From an uncultured Acidobacteriota bacterium (GTDB lineage: Bacteria > Acidobacteriota > Vicinamibacteria > Vicinamibacterales > CAVVIG01): 64,000 nt of DNA. Position 1 is the stretch's first letter; every line of letters starts with the position of its first letter. Position numbers and translations under genes: made by a program. Shown here piece after piece: positions 8,518 through 35,961 of the stretch. Below the pieces are notes generated by a model. The model saw only the letters and a list, made by a program, of their open reading frames with translations, was not told where the DNA came from and searched no databases. The DNA is taken from positions 78,239 through 142,238 of the forward strand of contig CAVUXJ010000007.1 in assembly GCA_963745495.1 (NCBI GenBank), read 5' to 3'.

Positions 8518-9612
8518 GGCCTGTCTCCGAGAATCACGATGTAACCTCGGAAGCCGGCGGGCGCGGCGCCGTAGCCGACCAGGATGCGGCCATCCGGCGA
8601 AATGCCGGTGATGACTCCGGTGTTGACCCAGCTCTCGAACGCGTCCGGCACGCCGTGGGCCCGCAGGTAGTCCTTCAAGTAAGAGGGAGAGCCGGTCGAT
8701 CCAGATGACGGCGTTGGAATCCTGCGATCCGCCGACGTTCTGTCCGCCACCAATCACCCGGCCGTCGTCGCTCGTCGCGTTGGCTTCGACGATGATCAGC
8801 GGACCGGGCGATGCACGCAGGCTCGGGGCGGGCAAGCACTGCGTGCCGTCCCGCGTCGTCCACACCCAGGCGCTTTGAAAGTTCGGATCGGTTGGTCTCG
8901 ATCGCTGACGGCGCTGCAGATCCGGCCAACCACGATCGTGCCGTCGTTGTTCGCGGCGTTCGCGGTTCCGACGAAGCCATCCGGACCTGGAAACAGTTCC
9001 TGCCGACCGTCCACCCACCGCGCGCCCTGGCGGAAGCCGGTCGCGTGCCTCCTGGTAGCCGACCACGACCTTGCCGTCTCCCGATACGCCCGTCGCGAGA
9101 CTGGCACGTCCCGCGACGGAACTGCCGAGATCGACCATGCCCGTCGATTCCTCCCACCGGAACGCATGCGTGAGGGTGCAACCGTTCCACGCGTAGACCG
9201 ACCACCACCCGTCCATCGCCGCTCGTGTCCATGCGCGTCACTCAGAGAGGCGTCACAGGGTGCCGCATTCGCGCTGAAACGAGCCGAGCAACTTCCATTC
9301 CGCCGCGCGCAGCCAGATCGCGGCCTGAGAATGCGCGCGAGTCGATCGCCCTTCCGACGATGGTGCGGCCATCCCGGCTCACGCTTGCGGCGACCATCGC
9401 CGCCAGTGGCGATCGACACCGGTCGTCGGCATCCAGTAGAATCCGCCGCCTCCGCCGAAGCCGCCGACCACCACGGCGCCGCTGGCGCTCACGCTGGCTG
9501 GCAACGCTCCAGATCGTTGCTCCAGCTCTATCAGCAAGGTCTTGTCGTTGGCGCGGGCCGTCAACGTCGGCGTCAGCAGCAGCACCGCCAGCAGCAATCT
9601 ATTCCCGCGCAT
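8514..9612 (-). CDS. HAF-repeat secreted protein (needs several frame changes)
   Basis: Signal peptide MRGNRLLLAVLLLTPTLTARA. Repeats of the type THAFRWEESTGMVDLGS..ATGVSGDGKVVVGY. C-terminus ..ITGISPDGRILVGYG.. Confidence 0.55.
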
Positions 9613-10057
9613 TGAGGAAACCTAGCGAAACTCAGCCACACAACGCTACGCCAAACTCGGTGAGCGCCGACGTAAGCTTCACGCGACAACGAGCGTCCAA
9701 GTCCGGGACACTCAAACCCGTACTCACTAAGGATGTCTCCCGCGGCGGATTACTCGCGAAGTGTCGCGAAGGGACAACCAATACTAGATCGAAGCGGGAC
9801 AAACCCCGTTCCCTTGCCGGGAACTTTCGCCCCATCTTTGTTGGTCTTGCGAATCACTCGGACTGCTCGGGACAATCGGTCGTTTGTTGATACAAGTCAC
9901 CACGCGTCCGTCCTGACCTGACTCGCCTCTCAGGCAGAGAGAAGTCTGGGTCACAGCTAACAATTTGCGCAACCTGACGGTAACTGGTTGACGGCACAGC
10001 CTCGTGCTCAATCACGATTCTTGCACGTACCCGCTCATCACCTTTCCGAACCTTCGT

Positions 10058-11456
10058 ATGGGAGTCGTCGCCGCCGCGTCAGTGTTGTACGCCCTGATGC
10101 CTCCCCTGCTCGCCACCGCACAAGAGGCCAACATGTCGACGACGGTGGCCTCCCTCGGCTCGGGCACCGCGACTTCTCTCATCAACCTCGACGCGATCAA
10201 GCCCAAGCCCGCTGCCGATCGCGGTCTGGCGCTGCCCTCCCTGACCCTGAGCAACGACGGCAGCGGCCCCCGCGTGAGGCACCTCGTCATGGAGCTGCCG
10301 GACCTCGACCTCGGCGAGGTCGCGGTCGCGTCCCGGCTCGGCGACCAGCCGCTCCCGGCCGTCTTCCACGCCGGCCCGCTGGCCGGCTCGGCGTTAGCGT
10401 CGCCCATGCGCGGACTGACGTTCACGACCGCGGGCACCGCGCCGTTGAGCCTGTCCTTCGGGCAGATGGGGACCGTGCTGGCCACGGGCACGCCCGCGCT
10501 CGCCGCGGCGGCCGTGAGCTTCACCCCGACCACCCGCCTCTCCGTGACGCCCCAGGTGCTGCTCCCCCTCGGCTCGCCCGATGCGCAGACGAGGGTCGGA
10601 ACGGCGATCCAGGCGAACGTCATCGGCAACCTGGCCCTTCTGACGGACGTGGGCGTGGCCGGGAGCGCCGCCACCGCCTGGGCGCCGCTGGCGTCCGCCC
10701 GTCTCGTCGGCCAGTGGCCCCGCGCCGGCATCGAGACAGGTGTGCTGCGCGGCGGGGCCGCGCCGCGCACCGAGACAGACACGGCGTTCGTGTCATCGCG
10801 CGACTACGAGACCGCGCAGGCACAGGTGCAGGCGCTGCCAGGCCTCACCCTTGCGGCGGCCGCGAACTCGTCGCGCCCCGCGGCCGACCCGGATGCCGAC
10901 GACACGACACGAGGCTCGCTCCGCATCGCCTACGACGGCCTCCCGACCGGGCGACTGGCCGCGGTTCAACAGCGGGAGACGACGGCCTCGCGGACGTCGG
11001 ACATCACCTCGCTCGAGTGGCGCCAGCGCGGCCCGGCCCGCATGGCCGTGCGCTACGTGCAGCAACGGGCATCCGACTCGGCGCTGGACGGGGCACGACG
11101 ATGCCTCGTCTCAGGTGGAAGTAGACCTTCCCACGCTCGCGCCCCGCTGCGCGGGTCGCCTGGACCTGCGCGCCACACTCACGGCAGGCTCCAGTTCGCT
11201 GGCAGGCCCTGGCTTGAACTCCCGGGTCAGCGGCCGGGTCGGCCTCATCGACGATGCGGCGCTCACGGGCGAAACGGAGCTTGGGATCACCGGTGGCGAC
11301 GGCCAAGTGCTGCGGGCCCTCCGGGTGACGACGGACATGCCGGTCGTCCCGGCGACGCGCCTCCAGCTGTCCTATACGTACCGCGGCGGCGCGCAATTCC
11401 TCTTCGGTCAGGCGTTCGAAGTGCGCCTCCAGCGGCGGCTCAACCCGGGCTGGTAG
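10058..11456 (+). CDS. secreted/outer-membrane hypothetical protein (one frame change near 11.1 kb)
   Basis: ORF 10004..11662 is protein-like for its first ~360 aa (signal peptide MGVVAAASVLYALMPPLLATAQ). It continues in ORF 10740..11456 (..LQLSYTYRGGAQFLFGQAFEVRLQRRL), a beta-barrel-like C-terminus. Confidence 0.5.
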
Positions 11457-11690
11457 CCATTGGACAGAAGGGTTCGACGCGCCCGGCCACGCGGTCGCCA
11501 CCGCGGGATGAGCCTGACCGTGCGCGACGAGCACGAACTCGCCGTTCAAGGGGATCGCCGCCGTCAGACCTGCGGCGGCGCGAGGTGGTCACCGTGTTCG
11601 TGATGACGCGCCTCCGCGGCGACCGGACGGACTCGATGCGCGAGTCGCTGCGCGCAGACTAGGGACGACGAGGCTGCCCCAGTTGCGGGC

Positions 11691-12542
11691 TCAGAACGGG
11701 AACCTCAGGTACATGCGCACGCCTGAGACGCGGCCGAACTGGTAGCCGGCGGCCAGCCACCGCAGCGGGATTTTCCAGATGCGCAGATGGGGCGCGGTCG
11801 AGAAGCTCAGTCCAGCTTCGAATTGCCCGCGAAGCACGATCGGTGGCTGGTCTTCTCTTTCCAGTTTCGGCCCGTCAAAGGTGCGGCCGATCACGTAGAT
11901 GCCTCCGCGCGCCTGCCCGCCGCGCACGGAGAAACCCAGAGGAACCTGCAGGTCGGCCCCTCCTTCAAAACTCGCGTATCGGGCGGTCGTACCGGCGAGT
12001 TCTGGCGTCTTCCGTCCGGAAATCATGCCGCCATAAGTGACGTGCAATGCCTTCTGGTCCGCGGTCGTGTGCGCGCGCAGGCCCGCCCCGTAGAGCACTT
12101 CGGCTGAAGAATCACTGCTCCTCCCGATTCCGACTTCGCCGAACGGCCGCACCAGCGTACGGGTGCCCACGGGAATCTCGACCTCGAGGCCAGGAATGAT
12201 TGCCGCGATGCCCAGCTTCTCGACGAAGCCGCCGATGTCCGTCACTCCCTTGATGCTCAGTGAACTCAGCGACACCGGGAAGGTGACCCGCAGTCCCCAC
12301 GGATGCTTGTCCAGGCTGCGCACATGGAAGGAAAACGGCAGGCGGTAGAGCTGGAAGCCGCGGGCCTCGACGTTCGTCGCGGACGCCGTCTCGTCGCGAT
12401 TGGCGAGGAGCAAGGGATCCAGGCCCTGGTCCTGCGCCGCGGCCGGCAATGCCGCGAAGAACAGGAGAAGCAGCGCGCCAGCGGCGCCTCGCCGCCAGAA
12501 TCGCCGGATCTCCGCCCGGTGGACGGCGGCGACGGGACTCAT
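11691..12542 (-). CDS. outer-membrane hypothetical protein
   Basis: In-frame ATG (MSPVAAV..) inside ORF 11691..13226. Signal peptide ..LLLLFFAALPAAAQ. Beta-strand-rich, with the C-terminal aromatic end ..MYLRFPF. The upstream 228 codons of the ORF look non-coding. Confidence 0.6.
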   Translation of the reverse strand: MSPVAAVHRAEIRRFWRRGAAGALLLLFFAALPAAAQDQGLDPLLLANRDETASATNVEARGFQLYRLPFSFHVRSLDKHPWGLRVTFPVSLSSLSIKGVTDIGGFVEKLGIAAIIPGLEVEIPVGTRTLVRPFGEVGIGRSSDSSAEVLYGAGLRAHTTADQKALHVTYGGMISGRKTPELAGTTARYASFEGGADLQVPLGFSVRGGQARGGIYVIGRTFDGPKLEREDQPPIVLRGQFEAGLSFSTAPHLRIWKIPLRWLAAGYQFGRVSGVRMYLRFPF

Positions 12543-13104
12543 GCACGGAGCAAGCCGGAGCAGCGATTGATCGACAACTACCGCGCGCTCGGGAACACCG
12601 ACGACCGGCGGTTCATCATGATGTGGTTCGATCGGTTCTCGCAGATACCTCAGTTTGAATCGAAGAAAGGCCGGCGCTGATCGACCGGCTTCGAAGCGCG
12701 GTGTACACGCTGAATGGCGAGCTCTGCCAGCGCGTCGCCCATCGCCAGTGATTCGCCGCTCCACTTCTCGGCGGCCAGCACATAGTCGATGAGCACGCTG
12801 CGGTGCAGAATGCGCTGCTGCTGGCGCCGAAGGGCGTCGACCTGGGTGAGCGTGCGGGCGCGTGAGGACCCGGTGTGACGTGGCCTGATCGGCCGCTGTT
12901 ATTTCGTGCGCGTGTACTGCTTGGCGTCGTGCGCCGTCCGCTCGGTCGGCCGCAGACACCGCAGGCACTTCCACGTCAGACCGTGGGTCCCTGCACGTCC
13001 GGCGTGCATCGCTGCACGGTGTTGTGGCCACGAACCGGCACCCTGCGTAGATCGTCGTCGCCGGCGTTGCCGTCATCGTCGTCACGCCTTCGTCCGCCTC
13101 AGCC

Positions 13105-13215
13105 CGCGCCCTGACCGCGTCGGTCGCCGGTTCGTTGGTGTGCGGACCAGCGCAGATTGCCGGGGATATAGCCCGCCTCAGTGTCAATCCGGTCCAGCGA
13201 GTACGCGGGTCCGGG
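13105..13215 (-). pseudogene. HNH endonuclease fragment
   Basis: Hand translation of the minus strand gives ..YSLDRIDTEAGYIPGNLRWSAHQ.., the (D/H)RID..GY.PGN.RW signature of phage/homing HNH nucleases. There is no start codon and it is truncated on both sides. Confidence 0.3.
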
Positions 13216-13248
13216 TCTCGGCCCAACGGTCGACTCCCGCCGTCGCGT

Positions 13249-13463
13249 CTAGTCGTCGCTCAGCTTGACTGTCGGCTTGCCTGAGCTGTCAAGCACGACC
13301 ACGTTTCGTGCGCGCAGGCGCCCCGCCACACCCAGCGTCCGGGTAACTCCACCCGCTGACCCGCGCTGAGCGTTCCCTCTATTTCAGAGTTTGCGAAAAA
13401 GACAATGTCGCCGTTGTTAGCGCGAATCTGACCAAAGCCCTTGGAATCCTTCCACAGAACCAC
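13249..13463 (-). CDS. cold-shock-domain protein (probable frame change near 13335)
   Basis: GTG start preceded by AAGGGAAG. (M)VLWKDSKGFGQIRANNGDIVFFANSEIEGTLSAGQRVE matches the CSD pattern. The natural-looking continuation, VTRTLGVAGRLRARNVVVLD..*, is in the +1 frame. Confidence 0.5.
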
Positions 13464-13993: not shown

Positions 13994-14461
13994 CTAAGTC
14001 AGGTCGTCCGGCTTGATGTGGTAGTCGTACGACACATGGACGACCGTCGGCGCGAGCGGTCTGCCGTCCTTGCTCGAATGCTCGTGGCGGTGCTTGAACC
14101 GCTCAGGTCGGTATGCGCTCAGGAGCGCGAGCAAGCAGATGTCTGAGTAGCGTTGTCGGTAGCCCACGATCTCGCCGTGGTGGTAGATGGGCTCGGCGAC
14201 ACCCTCGTCGGCGCGGCGGCGGCATTCAGCTTCGAGGACATCGGCCGCGGTCTGCCGCGCCTCATCGAAGTCACGGGCGAACCGCTCGTCATGCTCGATC
14301 CAGTCGTAGATGGTGCGCCGGCCGACACCGCTGGTGAGACACGCCGCTGTCACCGTGCCGACCTCAGCAAAGGCTGTCAGGAATGCGGTCTGCCCGGCCA
14401 CCCTGCGCTCAAGTGCCTGAGCAGCCAGCGACTTCCGCGCACGGGAGAGGTTGCGGGTCAT
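13994..14461 (-). CDS. phage terminase-small-subunit-like HTH protein
   Basis: ORF track, 155 aa. FLTAFAEVGTVTAACLTSGVGRRTIYDWIEHDERFARDFDEARQTAADVLEAECRRRA..YSDICLLALLSAYRPERF matches the common TerS-like/HTH pattern of prophages. Confidence 0.6.
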   Translation of the reverse strand: MTRNLSRARKSLAAQALERRVAGQTAFLTAFAEVGTVTAACLTSGVGRRTIYDWIEHDERFARDFDEARQTAADVLEAECRRRADEGVAEPIYHHGEIVGYRQRYSDICLLALLSAYRPERFKHRHEHSSKDGRPLAPTVVHVSYDYHIKPDDLT

Positions 14462-14511
14462 CGCAGTTCACCTCGGCTGCTTCGAAAAACTGGACTTCTT
14501 CGCGGTCCACC

Positions 14512-15291: not shown

Positions 15292-16044
15292 GTGCTAGGA
15301 TTCGCGGCTATGGATTGGCAGACGGCGGTAAGGGTGATGACGGGAATCGGTGCGGCAGCGAAGACCGCCAAGCCCGCTGTTGAAATGTCGATGGAACTCG
15401 TCGGCAGGGTGCTGACTCCGTCAGCCGACACTCTCGGGCAAGGTCTGGCGGCGCCGCTCCAAGAGTGGAAGCGGAAGCGTCAACAGCGGGCAGAAGGGAT
15501 TCTTGCAGACGCTGCGAAGAAGCTCGTGGAGAAGGGAATCGAGCCGACTCCAGTGCCACCTGCACTGCTGATTCCGATCCTCGAACATTCGTCGCTAGTC
15601 GAGGAAGAAGAGCTTCAGCGGAAGTGGGCGACGCTCCTAGCGAATGCTGGAGTCGCAGACAACAAGGTGCTTCCCGCGTTCGCCGAGATCTTGCGGCAAC
15701 TAACGCCGGTCCACGCGAAGATCATCGACTACATGCGCGGGGTCCCGGGCGAGGTCCTTGAGAAAAGAGTCCGCAGTCACGGAGAGGTCCATCGGAATAC
15801 CCTGGTAGGTTGGCTTAATCTCGGCGCCAACGCTATCGATGTTCTGTTCTCTGATCTTGAGAGGCTTCAAATCGTGGAGGTCGTCATCGAACAGCCCCTC
15901 CGGATAGGCGATTCACTGGGCCATCTAGCCACGAAAGTTCAACAGATCGCTTGGTCCATCGATTTCAAGGACCGGTTCAGGTTCTCGCCCTTGGGCCGTG
16001 AATTTGTCGGGGCTTGCTATGAGGTCAAAGGGCAAGATCGCTAG
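15292..16044 (+). CDS. Abi-alpha (DUF4393) abortive-infection-family protein
   Basis: ORF track, 250 aa. LLIPILEHSSLVEEEELQRKWATLLANA and LPAFAEILRQLTPVHAKIIDYM are the hallmark helices of Abi_alpha/DUF4393. GC is visibly lower than in neighbouring sequence. Confidence 0.65.
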   Translation: MLGFAAMDWQTAVRVMTGIGAAAKTAKPAVEMSMELVGRVLTPSADTLGQGLAAPLQEWKRKRQQRAEGILADAAKKLVEKGIEPTPVPPALLIPILEHSSLVEEEELQRKWATLLANAGVADNKVLPAFAEILRQLTPVHAKIIDYMRGVPGEVLEKRVRSHGEVHRNTLVGWLNLGANAIDVLFSDLERLQIVEVVIEQPLRIGDSLGHLATKVQQIAWSIDFKDRFRFSPLGREFVGACYEVKGQDR

Positions 16045-19276: not shown

Positions 19277-19423
19277 CGTGTCCCGGTGCTCCGCCCACAC
19301 TGCCTTTGAGGCGCGGTCATTGACAGCTAGCCGGCCATCGCCGACATGGTGAACGCGAGACCCGAAGACGCGACGCGCAGGCCAGCTTGTTACGCGACGC
19401 TGCGCGGTGCTACTGTGATCGCT

Positions 19424-19648
19424 ATGACATTGAAGGCTCGAGTGAAGGCCGGCCGGCTGGTCGTTGACGAACCCACCGACCTGCCCGAAGGAACGGAAAT
19501 CGAGCTGCTGCCTCTCGATCCCGGAGATTGGCTCGACGAGGAAGATCGAGCCGCCCTCCATCAGGCTCTGAAAGATTCCGACGAAGACATCAAGGCCGGC
19601 CGTCTCGTTGACGCGGACGTGATCCTTCGCGAACTTCGATCGCGTTGA
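19424..19648 (+). CDS. type II antitoxin (partner of the ParE-like toxin)
   Basis: Internal ATG of ORF 19346..19648. MTLKARVKAGRLVVDEPTDLPEGTEIELLPLD.. plus ..DIKAGRLVDADVILRELR. Its stop overlaps the toxin start. Confidence 0.7.
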   Translation: MTLKARVKAGRLVVDEPTDLPEGTEIELLPLDPGDWLDEEDRAALHQALKDSDEDIKAGRLVDADVILRELRSR

Positions 19649-19944
19649 AGAATCGCCGCGTTCGCTTCACAGCCACTGCGCAGGAACACGTTCGGCGAGA
19701 GAAAGCCTGGTGGTTGGCCAATCGCGACCACCCGGACGTGTTCACCGAGGAACTCGAACAAGCGCTCCAGATCATCGCGGCGCTTCCAGGGGCCGGAAGC
19801 CTCTACGCTCAGTCTCCAGTTCCCGGCGTTCGCCGCGTCTACCTCAGGAGAGTCGCCGCCCATCTCTATTACACGTTCGATGACGCCCGAGTGATCGTTC
19901 GCGCTCTCTGGGGCGCGCGTCGCGAACGCGGCCCGCGGCTTTGA
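19645..19944 (+). CDS. ParE/RelE-family type II toxin
   Basis: ORF track, 99 aa. ..GVRRVYLRRVAAHLYYTFDDARVIVRALWGARR is a typical ParE C-terminus. There is a 4-nt overlap with the antitoxin. Confidence 0.8.
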   Translation: MKNRRVRFTATAQEHVRREKAWWLANRDHPDVFTEELEQALQIIAALPGAGSLYAQSPVPGVRRVYLRRVAAHLYYTFDDARVIVRALWGARRERGPRL

Positions 19945-20025
19945 CCGTCAACCGGATCGCCATGACGGACCCGCCGATCATTGTCCGGCCCGGTCGCCCT
20001 CGAGTAACCTTGGTCGCGTTCCCGG

Positions 20026-23000
20026 ATGTCCAACGACGACGATGACCTTCCTTTCGGGCTCTACGAGCGCCTTGTCACAGCCGGCCTGAAGGCGCGACTT
20101 CTCCGCTTCGATTCCGACACCGCCCGCATCGTCAAGAAGGAGCTCGACCCCGCCGAGGCGCATGCCACGCTGGCCCGGCACGTCGCGAACGTCGTGGCGC
20201 GTGCACTCGAACGCTCTCCCTCAAGAAGATCGGGCCGCCGCGCAGTCGGAGCTGACCAATCAGATCATCAGCTTGCTTGCCGCCAATCCAGCTGAGCCGG
20301 CGGCCCGACGATGACTTGGTCGAAATCCCGCCTGAAGAACTGCGGGCGATTCAGCCGATCGGCAGAATGCCGAACGACGATCGGGACGTCGTCGCGCCGC
20401 TGGTCGCGCTGTCCGCGTCAGACCTCCTGGTCAACGCACGCGGCGAGCCTGGCCTCGCCCACGCGCTGGCGCACGAGATCCCGTCCGCCGACTCCATCGA
20501 CCTGCTGTGCGCCTTCGTGCGATGGCATGGGTTGCGGCTGCTCGAAGATCAGCTCGAGGCACATTGCCGGGCGGGCAGGCGACTGCGCGTGATCACGACC
20601 GTGTTCACCGGATCCACCGAACGGAAAGCGCTCGATTGGCTGGTGGCGCGCGGCGCGCAGGTCAAGGTGTCGTACGACACGCAGTCCACGCGCCTCCACG
20701 CGAAGGCGTGGCTCTTCCGCCGCGCCACCGGCTACTCCACCGCCTACATCGGCTCGTCAAATCTGTCGAAGTCGGCGCTCGTGGACGGCGTGGAATGGAA
20801 CGTGCGCCTGTCGCAGGTGGGCTCGCCGGACATCCTCGAGAAGTTCGACGCCACGTTCGACACGTACTGGGAAAGCCCCGAATACGAGTCCTATGAACCG
20901 ACTCGGGATGCCGCTCGATTCGATCGCGCGGTGGCGCCGCAACAAGGCGACTCGCTCGAGGCGCCGCTTCTCTTCCTGGACGTCGAACCCTGGCCACATC
21001 AGCGCGAGATGCTCGAGAAGCTCGCCGTGGAGCGCGAACGGCATCACCGCTTCAAGAATCTTGTCGTCGCCGCCACCGGAACCGGCAAGACCATCGTCGC
21101 CGCGCTGGACTACAAGCGCCTGCGCGATCAGCACGGCGATCTGCGCCTGCTGTTTGTCGCGCATCGACAGGAAATCCTGAAGCAGAGCCTCGGCGCGTTC
21201 CGCCAGGTCCTGCGGTCGGGAGACTTCGGCGAGCTCTACGTGGACGGCCACCGGCCCGACGAGTGGCGGCACGTGTTTGCGTCCATTCAGTCGCTCGCAC
21301 AGGTCGATCTGGAGCAGCTCGATCCGGCCGCGTTCGACGTCGTGATTGTCGACGAGTTCCATCATGCGGCGGCGCCGACGTATCGACGGCTGCTCGAACA
21401 TCTCTTCGACGGCGACGAGGCCCACTCGCTTCGACAGCCGCCCAGAATCCTCCTGGGTCTGACCGCCACGCCGGAACGCACCGACGCCGAAGACATCCTT
21501 CACTACTTCGACAATCACATCGCGGTGGAAATGCGGCTCTGGGACGCGCTCGAGCGCGGGCTGCTCTGCCCGTTCCAGTATTTCGGGCTGCACGACAACA
21601 CCGACTTGTCGTCGGTCCGGTGGTCTCGCAAGGGCTACGACACGGCGGAGCTCGAGCGCCTGTACACCGGAGACGATGCGCGGGTGAGGCTGGTGCTGGA
21701 GCAGGTGCGGCAGAAGCACCGCGATGCGGGGACGATGCGCGCGCTCGGGTTCTGCGTGAGCATTGCGCACGCGGAGTTCATGGCGCGGCGGTTCACGGAG
21801 GCGGGGCTTCCGTCGGTGGCCGTGTCCGCGGACACCGACAGCGACACGCGAAAGGACGCTCTGGCGTCGCTGCGCGCGGGGCGGGTGCGGGCGCTCTTCG
21901 CGGTGGACCTGTTCAACGAGGGTGTCGATCTCCCGGAAGTCGACACGCTGCTCTTTCTGCGGCCGACGGAAAGCGCGCTCGTGTTTCTCCAGCAGCTCGG
22001 GCGCGGGCTGCGGCGCCACGAGAGAAAAGACTGCGTGACGGTGCTGGACTTCATCGGCCAGTCGCATCGGCAGTTCCGCTTCGACCTGCGCTATCGCGCC
22101 GTCACGGGGACCACGCGAACCGAAGTCGAGAAGCAGGTGCAACTCGGTTTTCCGTTCCTGCCTGCGGGCTGCTCGATGCAGTTGGATCGCGTCGCGACGC
22201 AGATCGTCCTCGACAATCTGAAGAGCGCCATCCCCTCGCGTCGTCCTGCGATGGTGAGGGAATTGAGGGCGCTCGCCGACGCCCGTTCGGCTTCCGGACG
22301 TCGCATCACGCTTGCCGAATTCCTTCAGGAGGCAGGGCTGGAATTGGAGGACGTCTACCGTTCCGGCAGTTGGTCGGGCCTGCAACGTGACGCGGGCCTG
22401 AAGGTGCCCGCTCCCGGGCCACATGAAACGCTGATCGGCGATCGCCTGGCCGGAATTCTCCACGTGGACGATCCGCTTCGGCTCGGTGCCTATGAACGCC
22501 TCGCGGCATCGGCATCCGTGAACGCACTGTCTGACGCCGATCGTCGCCTCATGACCGGCTTTCATTTCGCCGTGATCCCTTCGAAGATCGCACCCAAGAC
22601 ACTCGCCGAGTCGGTCGCGCTCCTTCACGCGCATCCGGCCATCGTCGAGGAACTGCGCGAGCTGCTTCCCTTGCTGGACGAGCGGTCGGAGCATCTCACC
22701 TATCCGCTCGACCTCGCCCAGCCTGCCGGATCGCCACTCCGCGTGCCCCTGTCCGTGCACGCGCGCCACACGGTGGACGATGTGCTCACGGCGTTCGGGA
22801 TACTGGATTTCAACAAGACCGCGTGGAAGCAGACCGGTACGATCCGAGACGAGCAGACGAACTCGGACCTGTTCTTTGTGACGCTCGAAAAGTCCGAACG
22901 CGAATATTCGCCGTCCACGCTCTACAAGGACTATGCGATTTCGCCGACGCTGTTCCATTGGGAGTCGCAGTCGACCACCACGCAGCAGTCGAAAACCGGG

Positions 23001-23213
23001 CAACGCTACATTCATCACCGGAACCGTGGCGGCAACATCCTGCTGTTCGTGCGTCCACGAAAGAAGCAGGACGGGCGCACGATGCCATACACGTTCCTCG
23101 GCGCCGCAGACTACGTCTCGCACAAGGGCGAGCGGCCAATCAGCTTTGTGTGGAAATTGCGGAGACCGATGCCCGCGGATTTCTTCCGGCAGGCGAAGGT
23201 GGCCAGCGGCTAA
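20026..23213 (+). CDS. HKD(PLD-like) nuclease - SF2 (DExH) helicase - DUF3427 fusion protein (two frame changes at 20.21-20.30 kb)
   Basis: N-terminal piece: ORF 20026..20295 (LPFGLYERLVTAGLKARL..), with a hand-read middle frame LPQEDRAAAQSELTNQIISLLAANPAEPAA. Main ORF 20277..23213: LHAKAWLF..GSSNLSKSAL (HxK..GSxN), AATGTGKT (Walker A), VDEFHH (motif II), LTATPER (motif III), QQLGRGLRR (motif VI). The C-terminal ~230 aa (..FFVTLEKSEREYSPSTLYKDYAISPTLFHWESQS..) are DUF3427-like. Confidence 0.85.
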
Positions 23214-23220
23214 TAGGCTC

Positions 23221-23491
<271 letters not shown>

Positions 23492-24303: not shown

Positions 24304-27300
24304 ATGATCAACGATGCCAGCCCACGCGACGCCAGCGCACCGGACCATCCACTGACCCGTGTGATCGATCAACTGGCGCACCTGCTGCCGGCACAGGGCC
24401 CCATCAGCATCTTCATTCACCACAACACCCTGCACGCATTCGAGCACTTCCCGTTCGAAGAGGCGGTCGAGCGCGCCGCCAAACGGCTGGAGCGTGAACC
24501 GTTCCTGGCTGAGTCGCGGTATCGCGATAAGCTCGCGGCGGGCCGCATTCTCGCCAGGGACGTCGAGTCATTGCTCGCCGAACAGCTTGGCACGAGCGGC
24601 GCGCGGGACGTGGCTGGCGTCGCATCCCGCTTCGATCTCTGGCGAGCCGTCGTCCTGCACGGCATTCCTGCCGTGACCGGCCCTGAGCTGTCGTGGATCC
24701 TGGAAGAGACGACGGCGTTGTCGCGATTCCGGACCGACCTGCCGGCAAACGCCCGATCCGCGTCGGCCGCTTTGAGCGAACTGGACGATCGCGTGGCTGA
24801 GGAGCGGCGAGCCGTGCACAGGCTCTGGAACGCCTGTGTCGAGGCGGTCGGCCGCACCCCCGAATCGCCGGTTGCCGTGGCGGCGACTCCGGTTCGCCAT
24901 CGCGACTGGCTCCTGGCGGTGCACGGTCTTGACACCGATGCCTGGATCCATCCACCGCTCATTCGATTCCTGGCGGGTTATCTCGATCAGGGCCTCGCGC
25001 ACTGGTCGATGCCCGAAAGGAACCGCGGCATCCATGGCTGCTTTCTGGAGATCTACAACACGTCGCTGGCGGCACAATGCGGCGAGTGGGCGCGAACGCT
25101 CCCGCGGCTCGTCTCCGAAGACCGCGCCGCCGGGCGGAGCGCGCTGAGCTCGATTGCGAACTCCCTAGCCCAGCTCGGTGTCGCCCCCGGTGAAAATGAC
25201 GAGTGTGCGGACTATTTGAGCGCCGAACTGCTGGCCCTCCGAGGATGGGCCGGCATCGTGCGTCAGATCGAAGAGCGGCCCGACCGCGTCCCGGCGCGGG
25301 ACCTCACCGTGACGTTGCGCGGATACCTCGCGGTCCGCCTGCTGTTCGAACGCGCGGCGCTCGACCACGCTGCGCGACAACTCTCCTTCGGCGGTCCGCC
25401 GTCGGACCTGCGCCCCTGGCTGGGGAATCAGCTCCGTCGCTCACCGGCGCCAACGGCGCTCGAGCGTGCCTGGCCGCTCTTTCATGTCGCGCAGCTCCGC
25501 GGCCTTGATGCATCGATTGTGGAACAGTGGACCACTCGTAACGTGGCGGAGCTCGAGTCCGAACTGCGCGAGCTCGATAGCGTGCGTCAACGCCGGATCC
25601 TGCACCAGGCGTTCGAACGAACGATTCGTTATCGCCTGTACGACGCGCTGAGCTGTCACTCGCCGCGAGAGCTTCCCGAACCGCCGGCGTTCCAGGCCAT
25701 GTTCTGCATCGACGAGCGGGAGGAATCATTTCGACGCCATCTGGAGGAAGTCGAGCCGGCCTGCGAGACGTTCAGCACGCCCGGATTCTTCAGCGTGGCC
25801 ATGTATCACCAGGGCGTGTCCGACGCACACCCGCGGCCGCTCTGTCCTGTGGCGATCCGTCCCGATCATTACGTGGCCGAAATGGAACCGGACAGCGATC
25901 GCTTCACGGGACGCTCGCGCCGTTTACAACGGCGCGCCGCTGGATTCCTCGGCTACAACGTGCATCTGGGCAGCCGGCTGCCCGTCCGCGGTGCGGTGCT
26001 GATGACCGCGTTCGGCTGGCTGGCGCTTGTGCCGCTGATCCTGCGCGTGGTCTTCCCGTGGCTCTCGTCCCGATGGAGCCGCGTACACGAGACGTCGATC
26101 ACTGCCGTGCGAACCCGTCTGCAGCTGAATCGCGAGGACGTGGCGCCGCCCATCGGAAGGCATTCAGGGTTCACGGTGCGGGAGATGGCGGATATCGTGC
26201 GGCGCGTTCTCGAGGATATCGGGATTCGCGATCGCCTCTCGCCTCTCGTGCTCGTCATCGGCCACGGATCGATCAGCCTCAACAACCCTCACGAGTCGGC
26301 CCACGACTGCGGCGCGTGCGGTGGCGGACGCGGCGGGCCGAACGCCCGGGCGTTCTCTCAGATGGCCAACGATCCGCGCGTGCGCGAGCTGCTGACCGCC
26401 GAGGGCCTGCCCATCCAGGCGACCACCTGGTTTGTCGGGGCGCAGCGCAATACCTGCGACAACGCGGTCACTTTCTTCGACGAGGATCTCATCCCCGCGG
26501 ATTGCCGGCCGCTGTTCGAGCGGGCCGTCGAGACGATTGAGACGGCAAGGCGGCGTGAGGCGCACGAACGCTGCCGCCGGTTCGACGCGGTCCCGCGCTG
26601 GTATCCGCCGTTGGCGGCGCTGGCTCACGTGCAGGGACGTGCCGCCGATTTGGCGCAGCCGCGGCCCGAGTACGGCCATGCCACAAATGCGTTCTGCATC
26701 ATCGGCCGGCGGGCCCGGACACGCGGGCTGTTCCTCGATCGGCGTGCGTTTCTGGCTCTCGTACGATCCTGCTCTGGACCACGACGGTGCGATCCTCGCG
26801 CGCCTCCTGGCGGCGGTGGTACCGGTCGTCGCCGGCATCAGCCTCGAGTACTACTTCAGCTACGTCGATCCGTCGGGGTACGGCTGCGGCACGAAGCTGC
26901 CGCACAACGTCACCTCGCTGCTCGGCGTGATGGACGGCGCTCAAAGCGACCTGCGGACCGGCCTTCCATGGCAGATGGTCGAGATCCACGAGCCCGCACG
27001 ACTGGCGATTGTCGTCGAAGGTCCTCGGGATCGTGTGTTGCGCATCGTGCAGAGCAACCCGGGCATCGAGCGGCTGGTGCGAAACCGCTGGATCTGGCTC
27101 GCCTGCCTCGATCCGGAGTCCGGCGTGTTGTCGGAGCTCCGGTCCACGGGCTTCGTCCCGCACCGACCCGAGCATGCGCTTAGGGTCGTCGAGGGCGATT
27201 CTGCCGCGTGGTATCAGGGGAAACGCGGATTCCTTCCCCCGGTGGCGATCATGCAGGGATCTTCAGCCACCCCGGTCGGACGCGTGGATCAGGCGGGGCC

Positions 27301-30207: not shown

Positions 30208-30503
<296 letters not shown>

Positions 30504-30573: not shown

Positions 30574-31347
30574 TTACCAAATTACTCGATAACGAGATTC
30601 TCGGTTCCGCAACGTGAGCTCTTCGACGGCCGCCAGCGCCTCGTGCGCGGTCAGATCCGGCTGGACCGGTGTCACCGACACGAATCCGTCGAGGACGGCC
30701 TGGTAGTCCGACCGATCGTGCGGGTGCCACTCGTTCTGCCCCTCTTCAATCCAGAAATACGCCTGGCCCTTGGGGTCGTGGCGCTCGCCGACCGACGTGA
30801 CATGGTTGCGCCTGGCCAGGACCGTGACGCGGAAGCCCTTGCGGCCGCCCTTTCGGCACGTTGACGTTGAGAAAGGTCCGCGACGGGAGCGGACGCTGAA
30901 GCAGCGCCTCCGCCAGCGTGGCCGCGCTCTGCGCGGCATGCCGGAAATCATACGCGCCGCGCGTGGCCATCAGCGAAACGGCGAGGCCCGGCACTCCCAG
31001 CAGCGCCCCCTCGAGCGCCCCAGCCACGGTTCCCGAATACGTCACGTCGTCGCCAAGGTTCCATCCCTTGTTGATCCCCGAGACGACGAGATCGGGGAGG
31101 CGCTTGAAGACCTGGGTGATCGCGATGTTCACGCAATCGGTCGGCGTGCCGTCGACGCCGTATACGCCGATCGCCGATCTTCTCGAGCCTCAGCGGACGC
31201 CGCAGCGTGAGCGCGTGCCCGATCGCGCTCGCTTCCTCGACGGGCGCCACGATGGTGACGTCGCCGATCGCGACGGAGGGCGTCGGCGAGCGCCGTGATG
31301 CCCTCGGAGCGATAGCCATCGTCATTGGTGACAAGGATCAACGGCAT
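30574..31347 (-). CDS. surE: 5'/3'-nucleotidase SurE (needs 3 frame changes)
   Basis: MPLILVTNDDGYRSEGITALADAL / ..VAPVEEASAIGHALTLRRPLR.. / ..VSGINKGWNLGDDVTYSGTVAGALEGALLG.. / ..YFWIEEG..DYQAVLDGFVSVTPV.., spread over four overlapping ORFs. Confidence 0.8.
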
Positions 31348-31355
31348 TTCATTAG

Positions 31356-31403
31356 AGCTTACCAGCTTTCAGCTGTCAGCTATCAGCTCTCAGCGCTAGC
31401 TGC
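31356..31403. repeat. CAGCT-word low-complexity spacer
   Basis: AGCTTACCAGCTTTCAGCTGTCAGCTATCAGCTCTCAGCGCTAGCTGC. It is followed at 31445-31474 by ATGACC words (ATGACCAGATGACCCAATGACTCGATGACC). Confidence 0.6.
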
Positions 31404-31507
31404 AACTCGAGCCTCGGTTCGCAGCTCTCACGTGTCGGATTGAAATGACCAGATGACCCAATGACTCGATGACCGTATTCCCGATCCGGCGGGACTCAAC
31501 GACTGAT

Positions 31508-32962
31508 TCACGATTCGGCTGCGCGGCTACGGCCGGCAAGGAAGCCGGACACTGACGTACCGAACCGATCGCGCGATTCGGAAGGCACGACGACGAAGAG
31601 CAGCGCGGTCGCGACGAGGGCGAGAGCGGCGCCGAAGCCAAATGCGGCGGCGGGACCAGCGGTGCTCCAGATGACGCCGAACACGACGCTCGCGGTGAGG
31701 GCCCCGAGACCCTGCACGGCCGTGTACACCCCGAACGCAAAACCGCGGCGCGTCGGAGGCGCGAGGTCGGCGACGAGCGCCTTCTCGGTGCCTTCGGCAA
31801 ACCCGAAGTAGAAACCGTAAAGAAGGAACCACGCCAGGAGCGCGGTCAGCGAGTTGCTGAGCGCGAACCCCACGTACACGGCGGCGTAGACAAGCCAGCC
31901 CGCTGGCGATGACGGCACGGCGCCCTATCCGGTCAGACCAGCTGCCGCCGATGATCGACACGGTCGCCTTCACGACGTGCAGCGCCGACCACATCAGCGG
32001 CACGTACTGGACGCCGCCGGCGACGTCGGTGAGCTTCAGCAGCAGAAAAGCGTCGGTGGAATTCCCCAGCATGAACAGCGTGAGGACGACCATGAAGCGC
32101 TTGAGTTGCCGCGGGAGCGGTTCGGCGGCCTCGCGGCCTGCCACGCCAGGGACGGTCCGGCTGCCGCCTTCGCCGCTGTGCGGCCTCGCCATGCCAGGAA
32201 CGCTGGCCGGGCCCGGGGTCCGGCTAAAGCCGGACACTACGTGTCCAGGTTCATCCGCGCGAGGTTCATGCTTGTTGGAGCCGGACACTGCGGACCTGCC
32301 AGGTTCGTGATGGTCGGCGCCAGGGACGTATCGCCTTCTTCACGGACGAAGAAGATCAGGAGAACGGCGATCGCACCCGGGACGATCGTCAGCGCGAACA
32401 GGGTGCGGTATTCACCGGGATAGAACAGGAGGAAGAGTGACGCGACCGCGGGACCGACGACGGCGCCCGCATGATCCATCGCGCGATGAAACCCGTAGAC
32501 CTTGCCCCGCGTCGACGGCGTGGCCCACGTCGCGAGCATCGCGTCCCGCGGCGCACCGCGAATGCCCTTACCGATGCGATCGACCAGACGCACGGTGAAC
32601 ACGTGCGTCCAGCTCTGGGCCAACGCGATCAGCGGACGGACGGCCGAGGACAAAGCATAGCCGGCGATGACGATCGGCCGCTTCGCTCGCGAGCGGTCCG
32701 CGAGGCGGCCGGACAGGATCTTCAGGACGCTGTTCGCCGCCTCGGCGGCTCCTTCGACGATGCCGAGCGAGACGGCGCCGGCGCCGAGCACCTGAATCAG
32801 GAAGAACGGCAGAAGCGGGTAGATAGCCTCGCTCGCCGCATCGGTGGCGAGGCTCACCCATCCGAGAAACCAGACAGGACGCGGAAGGCCGAATCGTTCA
32901 CCGGCGCGAGTACGGGGCGATGGGACCGTTGGGGACGACGGTGACGAAGATGCTGTCGGCAC
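31508..32962 (-). CDS. MFS transporter (needs 2 frame changes)
   Basis: Three overlapping ORFs. ..VSLATDAASEAIYPLLPFFL.., GRLADRSRAKRPIV (motif-A-like) and 12-TM-like hydrophobicity. Confidence 0.75.
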
Positions 32963-33656
32963 GACCTCTCATTGTGTCCCGGTAGACAACGAAACCGCGA
33001 TAGCTGCCCGCCGGCACGAAGCGATCAGCGTCGAAGCTGACCGCCGGCCCGGCGCTGAACCAGCGCGCGCCCTCGAACTCGATCCACACGCCATCATTGG
33101 CAGTCATGCGGGGGACATCGTTGCCGACCGGACGCTGTGTCGGCGCGGCGCGAACACCCATCGTGCCGGCCACGTCGCCAGTTCGCGGACGTGTCGACGT
33201 CCGCTCGTACCAACGACGACGGCTTCCGGGCGCCTGACTCGCACCTGGCTGCGACCTGACTGACAGCTCTCCGTCCCTCTGAATCGGGAACGACGGCGGG
33301 CGCGATCCCACCGTCCCCGCGAGCTCGCCCTCCCGGCGCCGCTCGTAGGGCCGCATGAGGTTCCGGCCGATCGGCACGAAGACGATGCTGTAGGGCTCGA
33401 GGGTCGTGTCCGCGTAGAGCGGGACACCGTTGTAGACGCACGGTCCGCGCCATGACTTTTCCGTCGAAGAACACGTTCGGGCCGGTCGGGTAGTACAAGC
33501 TGCCGGCATGAAAGACGGTTCGCCGCGAATCTGCCAGTCGGCGTTCGCCGCGGTCACCTCGGGAGAGGGCGTTGGAAGTGAATAGACTTGAGCTCTTCCT
33601 ATATTCGGCATCAGCAGAGCCATACATAGGAACGCGCCAGGGACAATCGATCGCAT
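32898..33656 (-). CDS. secreted hypothetical protein (probable internal double frame change)
   Basis: ORF track, 252 aa, signal peptide MRSIVPGAFLCMALLMPNIGRAQ. The segment FHAGSLYYPTGPNVFFDGKVMAR is readable only in a neighbouring frame. Confidence 0.45.
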   Translation of the reverse strand: MRSIVPGAFLCMALLMPNIGRAQVYSLPTPSPEVTAANADWQIRGEPSFMPAACTTRPARTCSSTEKSWRGPCVYNGVPLYADTTLEPYSIVFVPIGRNLMRPYERRREGELAGTVGSRPPSFPIQRDGELSVRSQPGASQAPGSRRRWYERTSTRPRTGDVAGTMGVRAAPTQRPVGNDVPRMTANDGVWIEFEGARWFSAGPAVSFDADRFVPAGSYRGFVVYRDTMRGRADSIFVTVVPNGPIAPYSRR

Positions 33657-33701
33657 GACAGGCCTCCGGCTGGGGAGGTCTCAACAGGCGTGCCAATGCA
33701 G

Positions 33702-33763
33702 GAGGGTTCGAGAGGTTCGAGAGGTTCGAACGGTTCGTAGAAGTTCTGAAAGGTTCGAGGTTG
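33702..33763. repeat. GAGGTTC-word tandem spacer
   Basis: GAGGGTTCGAGAGGTTCGAGAGGTTCGAACGGTTCGTAGAAGTTCTGAAAGGTTCGAGGTT. Confidence 0.6.
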
Positions 33764-33865
33764 CGATAAGGAGCTGCTCCTCGCCGCGAGCCGTACAATG
33801 AAATCTCATGTCGACGTTGGCCGACCTGCTTTCGCGCGGCAACTCGCGAAGGCGAGCTCTACCGG

Positions 33866-34931
33866 GTGCTCGATGATGGGCGCCTGCAGTGCTATGCCTG
33901 CGGCCATTGCTGTCCGTTGCCCGAAGGTGCGATCGGCGTGTGCAAGGTGCGCTTCAACGAGGGCGGATCCCTCCGCGTCCCCTGGGGCTACGTCGGCGGC
34001 GTGCAGTGCGACCCGATCGAAAAGAAGCCGTTCTTCCACGCGCATCCGGGCGCGCTCGCCTACAGCTTCGGCATGCTCGGCTGCGATCTGCATTGCGGCT
34101 ACTGCCAGAACTGGGTGACGTCGCAGGCGCTGCGAGATCCCGCCGCCGTGGCGCCGCCGCTGGCAACGCGCCCGGAAGATCTCGTTCGCGACGCGCTGCG
34201 GCTCGGCGCCCGCGTCCTGGTGAGCACCTACAACGAACCGCTGATCACGAGCGAATGGGCGGTCGCCATCTTCAAAGAGGCGAAGGCGGCCGGCCTTCTG
34301 ACCGGATACGTCTCGAACGGCAACGGCACACCCGAAGTGCTCGAGTACATCCGCCCGTGGGTCGACCTGTACAAGGTCGACCTCAAGAGCTTCGACGATC
34401 GACACTATCGTCAGCTCGGCGGAAGACTGCAGCCGATCCTCGACACGATCCGTCGTCTTCATGCGATGGGCTTCTGGGTCGAGATCGTCACGCTGTTGAT
34501 TCCCGGGTTCAACGATTCACGAGACGAGATCGCGCGGCTGACGGAATTCGTGGCGGGCGTCTCGCCCGACATTCCCTGGCACGTCACCGCCTTCCACGGC
34601 GACTACAAGATGACGGATCCGGGGAACACGACGGCCGACATGCTGCTCGGCGCCGCCGCGATCGGACGGAGCGCCGGACTGCGATACGTGTACGCTGGCA
34701 ACCTGCCGGGCGCGGTCGGGGATCTGGAGAGACACGCGATGCGCGTCCTGCGGCGAGACGGTCATCGCGCGCTACGGGTACTTCATCCGCGACTACCGCC
34801 TCACGGCCGACGGCTGCTGCCCCTCTTGCGCGAAGCCGATTCCCGGCCGATGGGGGCCGCGATTCGACGGACAAATCACGTCGCGGCCCTTCCTGCCCGG
34901 ATCCCGCTCACGGCTGTCCGTCGTGTCATAA
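33866..34931 (+). CDS. amrS: AmmeMemoRadiSam-system radical SAM enzyme (one frame change near 34.73 kb; true start possibly ATG 33809 in another frame)
   Basis: LQCYACGHCC; CDLHCGYCQNW (CxxxCxxC); STYNEPLITSEW; YVSNGNGTPE. The C-terminal Zn-ribbon TRCASCGETVIARYGYFIRDYRLTADGCCPSCAKPIPGRW was read by hand in the frame that ends at TAA 34929-34931. Confidence 0.8.
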
Positions 34932-34940
34932 TTGCGGCAG

Positions 34941-35961
34941 ATGCCCCTGCTCGACACCTTCAAGCGCCCGCTGCGAAACCTCCGGCTGTCGGTGACGGAT
35001 CGCTGCAACCTGCGGTGCGAATACTGCATGCCGGAGAGCGACTACGTCTGGCTGCCGCGCGAGGACGTGCTGCACTTCGAAGAAATCGAGAAAGTCGTCG
35101 ACGTCTTCCTGGCGCTCGGCGTCGATCGTCTGCGGCTCACCGGCGGCGAGCCGCTGCTCCGCCGCGACCTCGCGTCGCTCGTTCGCATGCTCTCGGCCAA
35201 GCCCGGGCTGGCGGATCTCGCGATGACGAGCAACGGTATCCTGCTCGCGGACCACATCGATGCCCTCGCGGCCGCCGGTCTCGGCCGCGTCACCGTCAGC
35301 CTCGATACGCTCAGGCCCGACAGGTTCGCCGCGCTCACCCGCGTGGACGATCTTGCCGCGCGTGAAGGAAGGCATCGAGGCCGCGCACCGTGTCTTCGGA
35401 CGCCTCAAGCTCGATACGGTCGTCATCAAGGGCGTCAACGGCGACGAGCTGATCGATCTGATCGAGTACGGGAAGGGCGTGAACGCGGAAGTGCGATTCA
35501 TCGAGTACATGGACGTCGGCGGCGCGACGCGCTGGTCACCCGCCCGCGTCGTCTCACGCAGGGAGATGCTCGATCAGCTTGCGGCCCATTACGGACCGAT
35601 TCAGCCGGTGGTGGAGGATTCGTCGGCGCCGGCCGATCGGTTCACGCTGCCGGATGGCACGGTGTTCGGCATCATCTCGTCCACGACCGATCCGTTCTGC
35701 CGAAGCTGCGACCGCAGCCGGCTGACCGCGGACGGCGTGTGGTACCTATGCCTGTATGCCGCGCGGGGCATCGACCTGAGGGCCGCCGTACGGCGGGGCG
35801 CCAGCGTCGAGGAGTTGAAGGAACTGATTTCTGCCGGCTGGCGAGGGCGCGACGATCGCGGCGCCGAAGCCCGTCTCGCCCTGGATGACCGGCGTGGGTT
35901 CGTGCCTCTCAACTCTCTTCGCCAGGATCCGCACCTCGAGATGCATACGCGCGGAGGCTAG
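34941..35961 (+). CDS. moaA: GTP 3',8-cyclase MoaA (one frame change near 35.35 kb)
   Basis: [28 protein letters not shown], and C-terminal [14 protein letters not shown]...HLEMHTRGG. Spread over ORFs 34932..35888 and 35260..35961. Confidence 0.85.

Follow-up and report, generated by a model that had tools for sequence, protein, structure and literature searches.

SauUSI, a Type IV restriction enzyme from Staphylococcus aureus USA300, was reported in 2011 to need ATP and to cut DNA that carries 5-methylcytosine (5mC) or 5-hydroxymethylcytosine (5hmC); DUF3427 was presumed to be its specificity domain, and more than 150 homologs with a like organisation were recognised (PMC3141236). The structure of the enzyme, described in 2021, is a dimer held together via PLD domains and also contains a superfamily 2 (SF2) translocase, a helical coupler and a target-recognition domain (TRD) with an SRA fold (PMC7913695, PDB 7CLG). 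Methylated DNA activates the ATPase of SauUSI, the enzyme translocates DNA, and the H119A mutant is nuclease-dead (PMC7913695). More recently, loop translocation and cleavage by SauUSI have been resolved at the single-molecule level (2025 preprint, bioRxiv 10.1101/2025.10.16.682607). Here we describe a gene of this type at positions 20026-23213 (+ strand) of a 64,000-nucleotide stretch of DNA, called the window in what follows, from an uncultured Acidobacteriota bacterium (contig CAVUXJ010000007.1 of assembly GCA_963745495.1). A first-pass annotation, made from the letters of the window, had proposed a single-gene defence system and stated that no mechanistic description of its architecture was known. 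The latter statement is wrong: the biochemistry, structure and single-molecule work on SauUSI provide such a description, and a PADLOC model exists as well. Because the combination of a PLD nuclease, an SF2 ATPase and DUF3427 is exactly that of SauUSI, the architecture is not uncharacterised, and the gene is a new member of a known family. We consider it very likely that it encodes an ATP-dependent Type IV (modification-dependent) restriction endonuclease of the SauUSI family.

The features of the gene to which the following paragraphs refer are these:

20026-23213, + strand: SauUSI-type gene, from ATG 20026 to TAA 23211-23213, about 1061 amino acids (aa) without two extra bases
20026-20400, + strand: N-terminal extension, about 100-125 aa, with both frame breaks inside (conservation; AlphaFold2 model of a homolog)
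20210-20214, about 20212, + strand: frame break 1 (DNA alignment column 187; tblastn frame change)
20300-20309, in or beside the C-run 20304-20306, + strand: frame break 2 (DNA alignment column 281; tblastn frame change)
20421-20921, + strand: PLD/HKD-family nuclease domain (phmmer to 7CLG; Pfam PLDc_2; Foldseek of the homolog model)
20694-20717, + strand: LHAKAWLF, HxK motif of the nuclease
20751-20780, + strand: GSSNLSKSAL, nuclease
20985-22016, + strand: SF2 DExH helicase-like ATPase, a double-stranded DNA translocase (ResIII; Helicase_C; motifs aligned with SauUSI)
21069-21092, + strand: AATGTGKT, motif I of the ATPase
21348-21365, + strand: VDEFHH, motif II (DEFH) of the ATPase
21459-21479, + strand: LTATPER, motif III of the ATPase
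21990-22016, + strand: QQLGRGLRR, motif VI of the ATPase
22017-22736, + strand: helical coupler region, from the ATPase to the recognition domain (position; partial alignment)
22737-23210, + strand: C-terminal TRD (DUF3427, SRA fold; Pfam, AlphaFold2, Foldseek)
22896-22973, + strand: conserved S-x-x-T-x-Y-x-D...W segment of the TRD, within the DUF3427 domain

The assignment is based, above all, on the comparison with SauUSI itself. When PDB sequences were searched with phmmer, 7CLG was by far the top match (E 1.9e-86), in two stretches that take in the nuclease and ATPase domains, the beginning of the coupler, and the C-terminal domain; the Foldseek description line names this entry as the ATP-dependent restriction endonuclease SauUSI. 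Of the 604 residues aligned, 32% are identical. The HxK of LHAKAWLF, the single such motif of the protein, lines up with His119 and Lys121 of SauUSI, and ATPase motifs I, II (DEFH), III and VI are all aligned to their SauUSI counterparts. In the coupler, the alignment to 7CLG stops in the first subdomain, at residue 685 of the largest open reading frame (ORF) and residue 646 of SauUSI, and the PADLOC mREase_IV profile PDLC03659 spans the coupler region too. This profile, described as 'Type IV methyl-directed restriction enzyme', matches the protein with an E-value of 5.7e-268, from position 14 to position 937 of a model of 945 positions, while a second mREase_IV model reaches 4e-84 and every other defence model is worse than 1e-34. 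Additionally, a Foldseek search with the nuclease part of a homolog's AlphaFold2 model returned SauUSI as the best match, followed by Zucchini, NucT, Nuc and BfiI. The proposal of a single-gene defence enzyme is supported.

As assembled, this is one gene that runs across three reading frames, as seen in the ORF listing and when two intact homologs of 1061 aa (P0001 and P0004) were used as tblastn queries. The frame of 20026 holds residues 1-61, that of 20027 holds residues 62-94, and that of 20028 holds residues 95-1061. On the + strand, a 978-aa ORF at 20277-23213 is preceded by two short ones at 20026-20295 and 20162-20314. In the 978-aa ORF (start 20277), Pfam places PLDc_2 at residues 89-198, ResIII at 237-401 (E 6e-33), Helicase_C at 486-580 (E 2e-11) and DUF3427 at 824-972 (E 1e-24). 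The description of a nuclease, an SF2 DExH core and DUF3427 in one gene holds; every motif quoted by the first-pass annotation has been located, and all four Pfam families that it named for a search have been found.

Because the DUF3427 end is the weakest by sequence, the C-terminal domain was folded: AlphaFold2 was run on window positions 22674-23210, and the alignment supplied to it held 78 homologs, each from another species. The resulting model (pLDDT 87.9, pTM 0.86) was compared with the PDB by Foldseek, and the SauUSI TRD was the top match (E 8e-7, probability 1.00, TMq 0.60). The matches that follow it are solely SRA domains that read 5mC or 5hmC, namely those of AbaSI, SUVH6, SUVH5, ScoMcrA, MspJI and KRYPTONITE. 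The idea that DUF3427 might be a nucleic-acid sensor, also put forward in the first-pass annotation, is supported. In the K-S-P-T-Y-D-W segment, six of the seven residues that are invariant in the 78-sequence alignment (K, S, T, Y, D and W) are identical in SauUSI. This segment surrounds the loop matching SauUSI 848-854, which has been proposed to contact the flipped base (PMC7913695).

The window protein and SauUSI have in common, in the same order and in one polypeptide, a PLD/HKD nuclease with one HxK, an SF2 DExH translocase and an SRA-fold TRD, with a putative helical coupler before the TRD. They resemble each other in sequence over the nuclease, the ATPase and the first part of the coupler, in the fold of the TRD, for which each other structure matched less well, and in having no companion methyltransferase. 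By contrast, the window protein has an N-terminal helical extension of about 100 aa, and its TRD has strongly diverged in sequence. It also differs in its acidobacterial host and in its setting, a cassette at a tRNA-Pro gene with a toxin-antitoxin (TA)-like pair, and its activity is a predicted one.

By analogy with SauUSI, the protein would dimerise through its PLD nuclease domains, so that the one HxK of each protomer would contribute to a single joint active site. When foreign DNA enters, the SRA-fold DUF3427 domain would flip a modified cytosine out of the helix and so recognise it, and the recognised mark would most likely be 5-methyl- or 5-hydroxymethylcytosine. Recognition of the mark may then activate the SF2 motor, whose ATP-driven translocation on double-stranded DNA would take the nuclease along. 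Modified DNA would be cut and, over repeated cycles, shredded, and the host DNA would be spared if it is, as expected, without the recognised modification. The domain homology, the catalytic and motor motifs, the SRA fold and the accessory, mobile setting are observed here, whereas dimerisation, ATP dependence, which modified base is read and in what context, and what the N-terminal helical domain does are inferred. With regard to the sparing of the host, no C5-methyltransferase (PF00145) was found across the whole assembly, which is 74.5% complete (the control was positive in 9 of 14 genomes), and no methyltransferase domains were found among the neighbouring ORFs scanned with Pfam. The absence of PF00145 from the assembly fits a host of a 5mC-directed enzyme.

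The N-terminal extension is the only departure from SauUSI of any interest. Residue 30 of SauUSI is paired with residue 49 of the 978-aa ORF, or roughly residue 132 when the whole protein is numbered; therefore, the subfamily has some 100 extra N-terminal residues, and the lengths are 1061 aa for the window protein versus 953 aa for SauUSI. In an alignment of 75 species the extension is kept; the Gly of its GLYE motif is invariant, and an LARH motif is conserved too. The GLYE motif is followed by two long helices and by a conserved loop (P.LS..DLL.NA) that leads into the nuclease. An AlphaFold2 model of the first 300 residues of a homolog with 91% identity (L001) has a pLDDT of 91 and places helices at residues 44-61 and 65-84; an N-terminal helical region had been noted in the first-pass annotation. 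On the other hand, the same annotation had put the frame breaks in a linker, and this is not so, since both fall inside this conserved and confidently folded helical domain. No Pfam family covers the extension, and PDLC03659 begins after it (model position 14 corresponds to ORF residue 38). The domain could have a role in auto-inhibition, as an alternative dimer or oligomer interface, or in docking a partner. It is a tentative idea, which we hold to be rather improbable, that the domain may mark a large 'N-extended' branch of SauUSI-like enzymes in Acidobacteriota, Actinomycetota, Cyanobacteria and Myxococcota, in which it would be a functional module and, together with the diverged TRD, would give a different activation logic or target modification.

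Several other described systems share some of these parts. The profile PDLC03659, whose members are proteins annotated as 'DUF3427 domain-containing protein' from Actinomycetota, Acidobacteriota and Cyanobacteria, matches end to end but starts after the N-terminal extension. To our knowledge, no close relative under this profile has been assayed. The fusions of DUF3427 to PD-(D/E)XK nucleases (McaZI, BwiMMI, EfaL9I and YenY4I; PMC6765204) resemble the window protein in having DUF3427 as a sensor for 5mC or 5hmC DNA. They restrict T4gt (5hmC), have little activity in vitro and are common in defence islands (PMC6765204). By contrast with the window protein, these fusions have no helicase motor, use PD-(D/E)XK instead of PLD and are ATP-independent. 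NgoAVII and CglI also combine a PLD nuclease (the R-protein) with an SF2 ATPase (the N- or H-protein), and the NgoAVII R-protein is among the fold matches. However, these systems consist of two subunits, bind DNA by a B3-like domain, come with a cognate methyltransferase, cut unmodified sites, and are unlike the window protein in domain arrangement and in cleavage mode (PMC7913695). Mokosh (MkoB/MkoC), DISARM DrmC and the PLD-helicase protein NF042964 are similar in that a PLD nuclease and/or a helicase is found in a defence setting. Membership in these groups was rejected, as the matches are only local (E 5e-4 for MkoB, 4e-3 for DrmC and 2e-3 for PLD_Helicase) and the anti-phage protein model NF042964 gives 26 bits versus a cut-off of 1100.

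It must also be asked whether the gene is intact in the organism. Compared with three intact homologs in a DNA alignment, the window gene has exactly two single extra bases, at about 20212 and at 20304-20306, close to the positions of about 20215 and 20300 that had been proposed for the breaks. They could be real, in which case the gene would be a recently inactivated pseudogene from which only fragments of 89, 50 and 978 aa would be made. In fact, the frame as assembled is broken twice within 95 nucleotides, defence genes are often lost, and no same-strain copy turned up when metagenome contigs were scanned for the exact pattern around break 1, with the extra base optional. Nevertheless, the rest of the genome behaves in the same way. 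The 99 long ORFs of ten 20-kb pieces of a relative (G006, from a different genus of the same family) were compared by tblastn with the whole genome from which the window comes, and 29 of them, whose orthologs there are 55% identical or more (30.8 kb aligned), were kept for counting frame changes. More than half of these conserved genes (15 of 29) are split, with 23 frame changes in 30.8 kb, or 0.75 per kb, and all 23 are of the +1 type, that is, one extra base. In the split genes taken as examples (C10:80302-81804, C3:73237-74331 and C7:112080-113151, all +1 by tblastn), the subject coordinates abut and the query coordinates are contiguous. A living organism would not have every second conserved gene broken, and random mutation would not produce 23 of 23 changes in one direction; the +1 breaks across the assembly are a systematic insertion error. 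About 2.4 such errors would be expected in a gene of 3.2 kb, and two were observed, both +1. Additionally, the remaining 967 codons are free of stops and 95% identical to the intact G006 protein, the ratio of non-synonymous to synonymous substitution rates (dN/dS) is 0.11 against that protein and 0.09 and 0.11 against two further homologs, and the best 80 homologs in other species are all single open frames of about 1020-1100 aa. We therefore reject the pseudogene, which is very improbable given the genome-wide +1 pattern and the dN/dS; the two breaks are almost certainly single-base insertion errors in a gene that is most likely intact in the organism. Until reads say otherwise, any frame break in this genome is best taken for an artefact, and not for a pseudogene or recoding.

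Even with an intact gene, the targets of the enzyme might differ from those of SauUSI. The TRD of a SauUSI-like machine could sense a mark or context other than 5mC and 5hmC, such as another modified cytosine, a hypermodified phage base, a backbone modification or a different sequence context. The TRD is, in fact, only 18-21% identical to that of SauUSI in the structural alignment and matches it with 24 bits by sequence, and an Arg that is invariant in the subfamily (ORF residue 926) is Gln in SauUSI. SRA domains have also diverged elsewhere, for instance in AbaSI (5hmC and glucosyl-5hmC) and in ScoMcrA, where the domain is paired with a sulfur-binding domain, and the DUF3427-PD-(D/E)XK fusions act on T4gt with weak activity in vitro (PMC6765204). 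We nevertheless regard a different mark as unlikely, as the K, S, T, Y, D and W near the loop for the putative flipped base are common to SauUSI, all significant fold matches of the TRD are readers of cytosine-5 modifications, and the assembly has no C5-methyltransferase, as would be expected with a 5mC-directed enzyme. A very different explanation, namely that the protein is a RadD- or XPB-like helicase-nuclease for housekeeping DNA repair or recombination and not for defence, is extremely unlikely. Its helicase core does resemble RadD (PDB 6JDE, E 9e-19; NCBIfam 100.9 bits) and XPB. However, the match is restricted to that core and the NCBIfam score lies far under the cut-off of 720 bits, so membership in RadD was rejected; both the PLD nuclease and the SRA domain are absent from RadD. 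The gene is also patchy among relatives and belongs to a mobile cassette next to a tRNA gene, and its homology to a demonstrated restriction enzyme is full-length. Some observations do weigh against a SauUSI-type restriction enzyme that is directed at 5mC or 5hmC and intact in its host. The closest characterised enzyme, SauUSI, is only 32% identical; the alignment reaches the first coupler subdomain, and homology of the second is presumed. Given the weak TRD match and the Arg/Gln exchange just mentioned, the modified base and the sequence context could differ. The subfamily carries a conserved N-terminal domain of about 100 aa that SauUSI is without, the missing C5-methyltransferase is not proof in an assembly of this completeness, and the artefactual nature of the breaks is deduced from the genome-wide pattern and not from direct evidence at the two sites.

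The gene of the SauUSI-type enzyme lies in a region with further genes of the mobile and defence kind, of which the following were recognised upstream of it:

13994-14467, - strand: Sf6-type small-terminase-like gene (E 1.5e-6)
15292-16044, + strand: Abi_alpha (abortive infection) gene (E 1.2e-22)
19346-19648, + strand: putative antitoxin, likely true start ATG 19424, 4-nucleotide overlap with the next ORF
19645-19944, + strand: ParE/RelE-like toxin candidate (sub-threshold Pfam ParE_toxin)

In this upstream island the main ORFs were scanned with Pfam; gene calling based on the G+C content of third codon positions (GC3) was not discriminating at this G+C content. The stretch is a mosaic of defence genes and phage-derived remnants. 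Together with the TA-like pair and the tRNA-Pro repeat described below, the Abi_alpha and small-terminase-like genes agree with the mobile, defence-like neighbourhood envisaged at the outset. The pair immediately before the enzyme had been taken for ParDE. Two ORFs of about 100 aa with a 4-nucleotide overlap are indeed present, in a TA-like layout, but the assignment to ParE is weak: ParE_toxin scores 19.7 bits versus a cut-off of 23 bits (E 1.3e-3, profile positions 1-87 of 89), no PDB sequence match was found for the toxin candidate, and the putative antitoxin has no family match among the Pfam, PADLOC and NCBIfam profiles.

The pair and the enzyme together form a cassette of 3.9 kb (window 19328-23213), which is found with 91% nucleotide identity in G006. 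There, the cassette occupies positions 9408-13327 of the locus L016 (G006:C2), the enzyme has an intact 1061-aa frame, the antitoxin is 93% conserved and the toxin is 88% identical. The G006 copy lies between a 3' fragment of tRNA-Pro (G006:C2:1194268-1194319) and an intact tRNA-Pro (1199980-1200063), beyond which comes a core flank that matches window 30623-35767, and the homology between both cassettes stops exactly at the stop codon of the enzyme. The enzyme is thus carried by a small cassette that has tRNA-Pro as its integration site. Neither the window copy nor the G006 copy of the cassette showed an integrase. An obligate partnership between the TA pair and the enzyme was considered and rejected, as, among 99 loci, the pair accompanies the enzyme only in the G006 cassette. 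The comparison with an empty site was uninformative; in a same-genus genome (G001) only tRNA-sized matches were obtained and the flank was not found. Two further tRNA-Pro-like fragments were noticed 4 kb apart elsewhere in the chromosome of G006 (G006:C2:3277045-3277107 and 3281009-3281121), which suggests a second site with another small cassette of the same kind.

The gene ends, as had been stated, just before a tRNA-derived repeat, its stop being at 23213 and the repeat starting at 23221. This is a direct repeat of 270 nucleotides (23221-23491 versus 30208-30475, 92-95% identity). Its first copy holds the 3' half of tRNA-Pro(CGG), as a fragment at 23443-23491, and its second copy overlaps an intact tRNA-Pro(CGG) at 30427-30503 (- strand). 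The repeat is unusually long, consisting of the 3' half of tRNA-Pro and 220 nucleotides of downstream flank, and the two copies bracket a cassette of about 6.7 kb of the ArsR and DUF2309/DAB type, with no integrase. Within this stretch, the 3' end of the DUF2309 (DabA-like) ORF at 24304-27183 degenerates into a sequence rich in Arg, Pro and Gly, which looks like another +1 assembly error. A 94-nucleotide 'tRNA-Tyr' that ARAGORN predicts inside the same ORF (25869-25962, - strand) was set aside as a probable false positive, since no Rfam tRNA is found there even at E 0.1.

Among relatives, the gene is accessory and not core: of 41 genomes from its order, 9 gave a match, and the one genome from its genus gave none. 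The first-pass annotation had named presence in all relatives, as a conserved core gene, as the finding that would speak against its proposal. The family as a whole is large. At least 8000 proteins were matched in the family search, and at least 593 species of the genome collection have a member, in Acidobacteriota, Actinomycetota, Cyanobacteria, Myxococcota and Gemmatimonadota; a few records labelled as plasmid or phage also carry one. The neighbourhoods of close homologs are varied and rich in defence and mobile genes, for instance TIR_2, a second paralog, HNH_2, DUF4411/ImmA and an excisionase-type helix-turn-helix gene. In one metagenome-assembled genome of Vicinamibacterales (locus L002), a distant PLD-helicase-DUF3427 paralog of 1030 aa adjoins an HNH_2 gene (1-452 and 474-1406) and lies 10 kb from the orthologous enzyme, and DUF4411/ImmA-like and excisionase-type genes are found in the same island.

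Members of the family bear generic annotations such as 'DEAD/DEAH box helicase' and 'DUF3427 domain-containing protein'. What is labelled 'DUF3427 helicase' in soil bacteria can thus be an ordinary Type IV restriction enzyme of the SauUSI type, and the usual defence finders already recognise it as one. The gene has little value as a discovery; the N-terminal extension may mark a large branch of the SauUSI family. For work with these Vicinamibacterales-type acidobacteria, a barrier to Dcm-methylated or otherwise C5-methylated DNA should be expected in transformation or conjugation.

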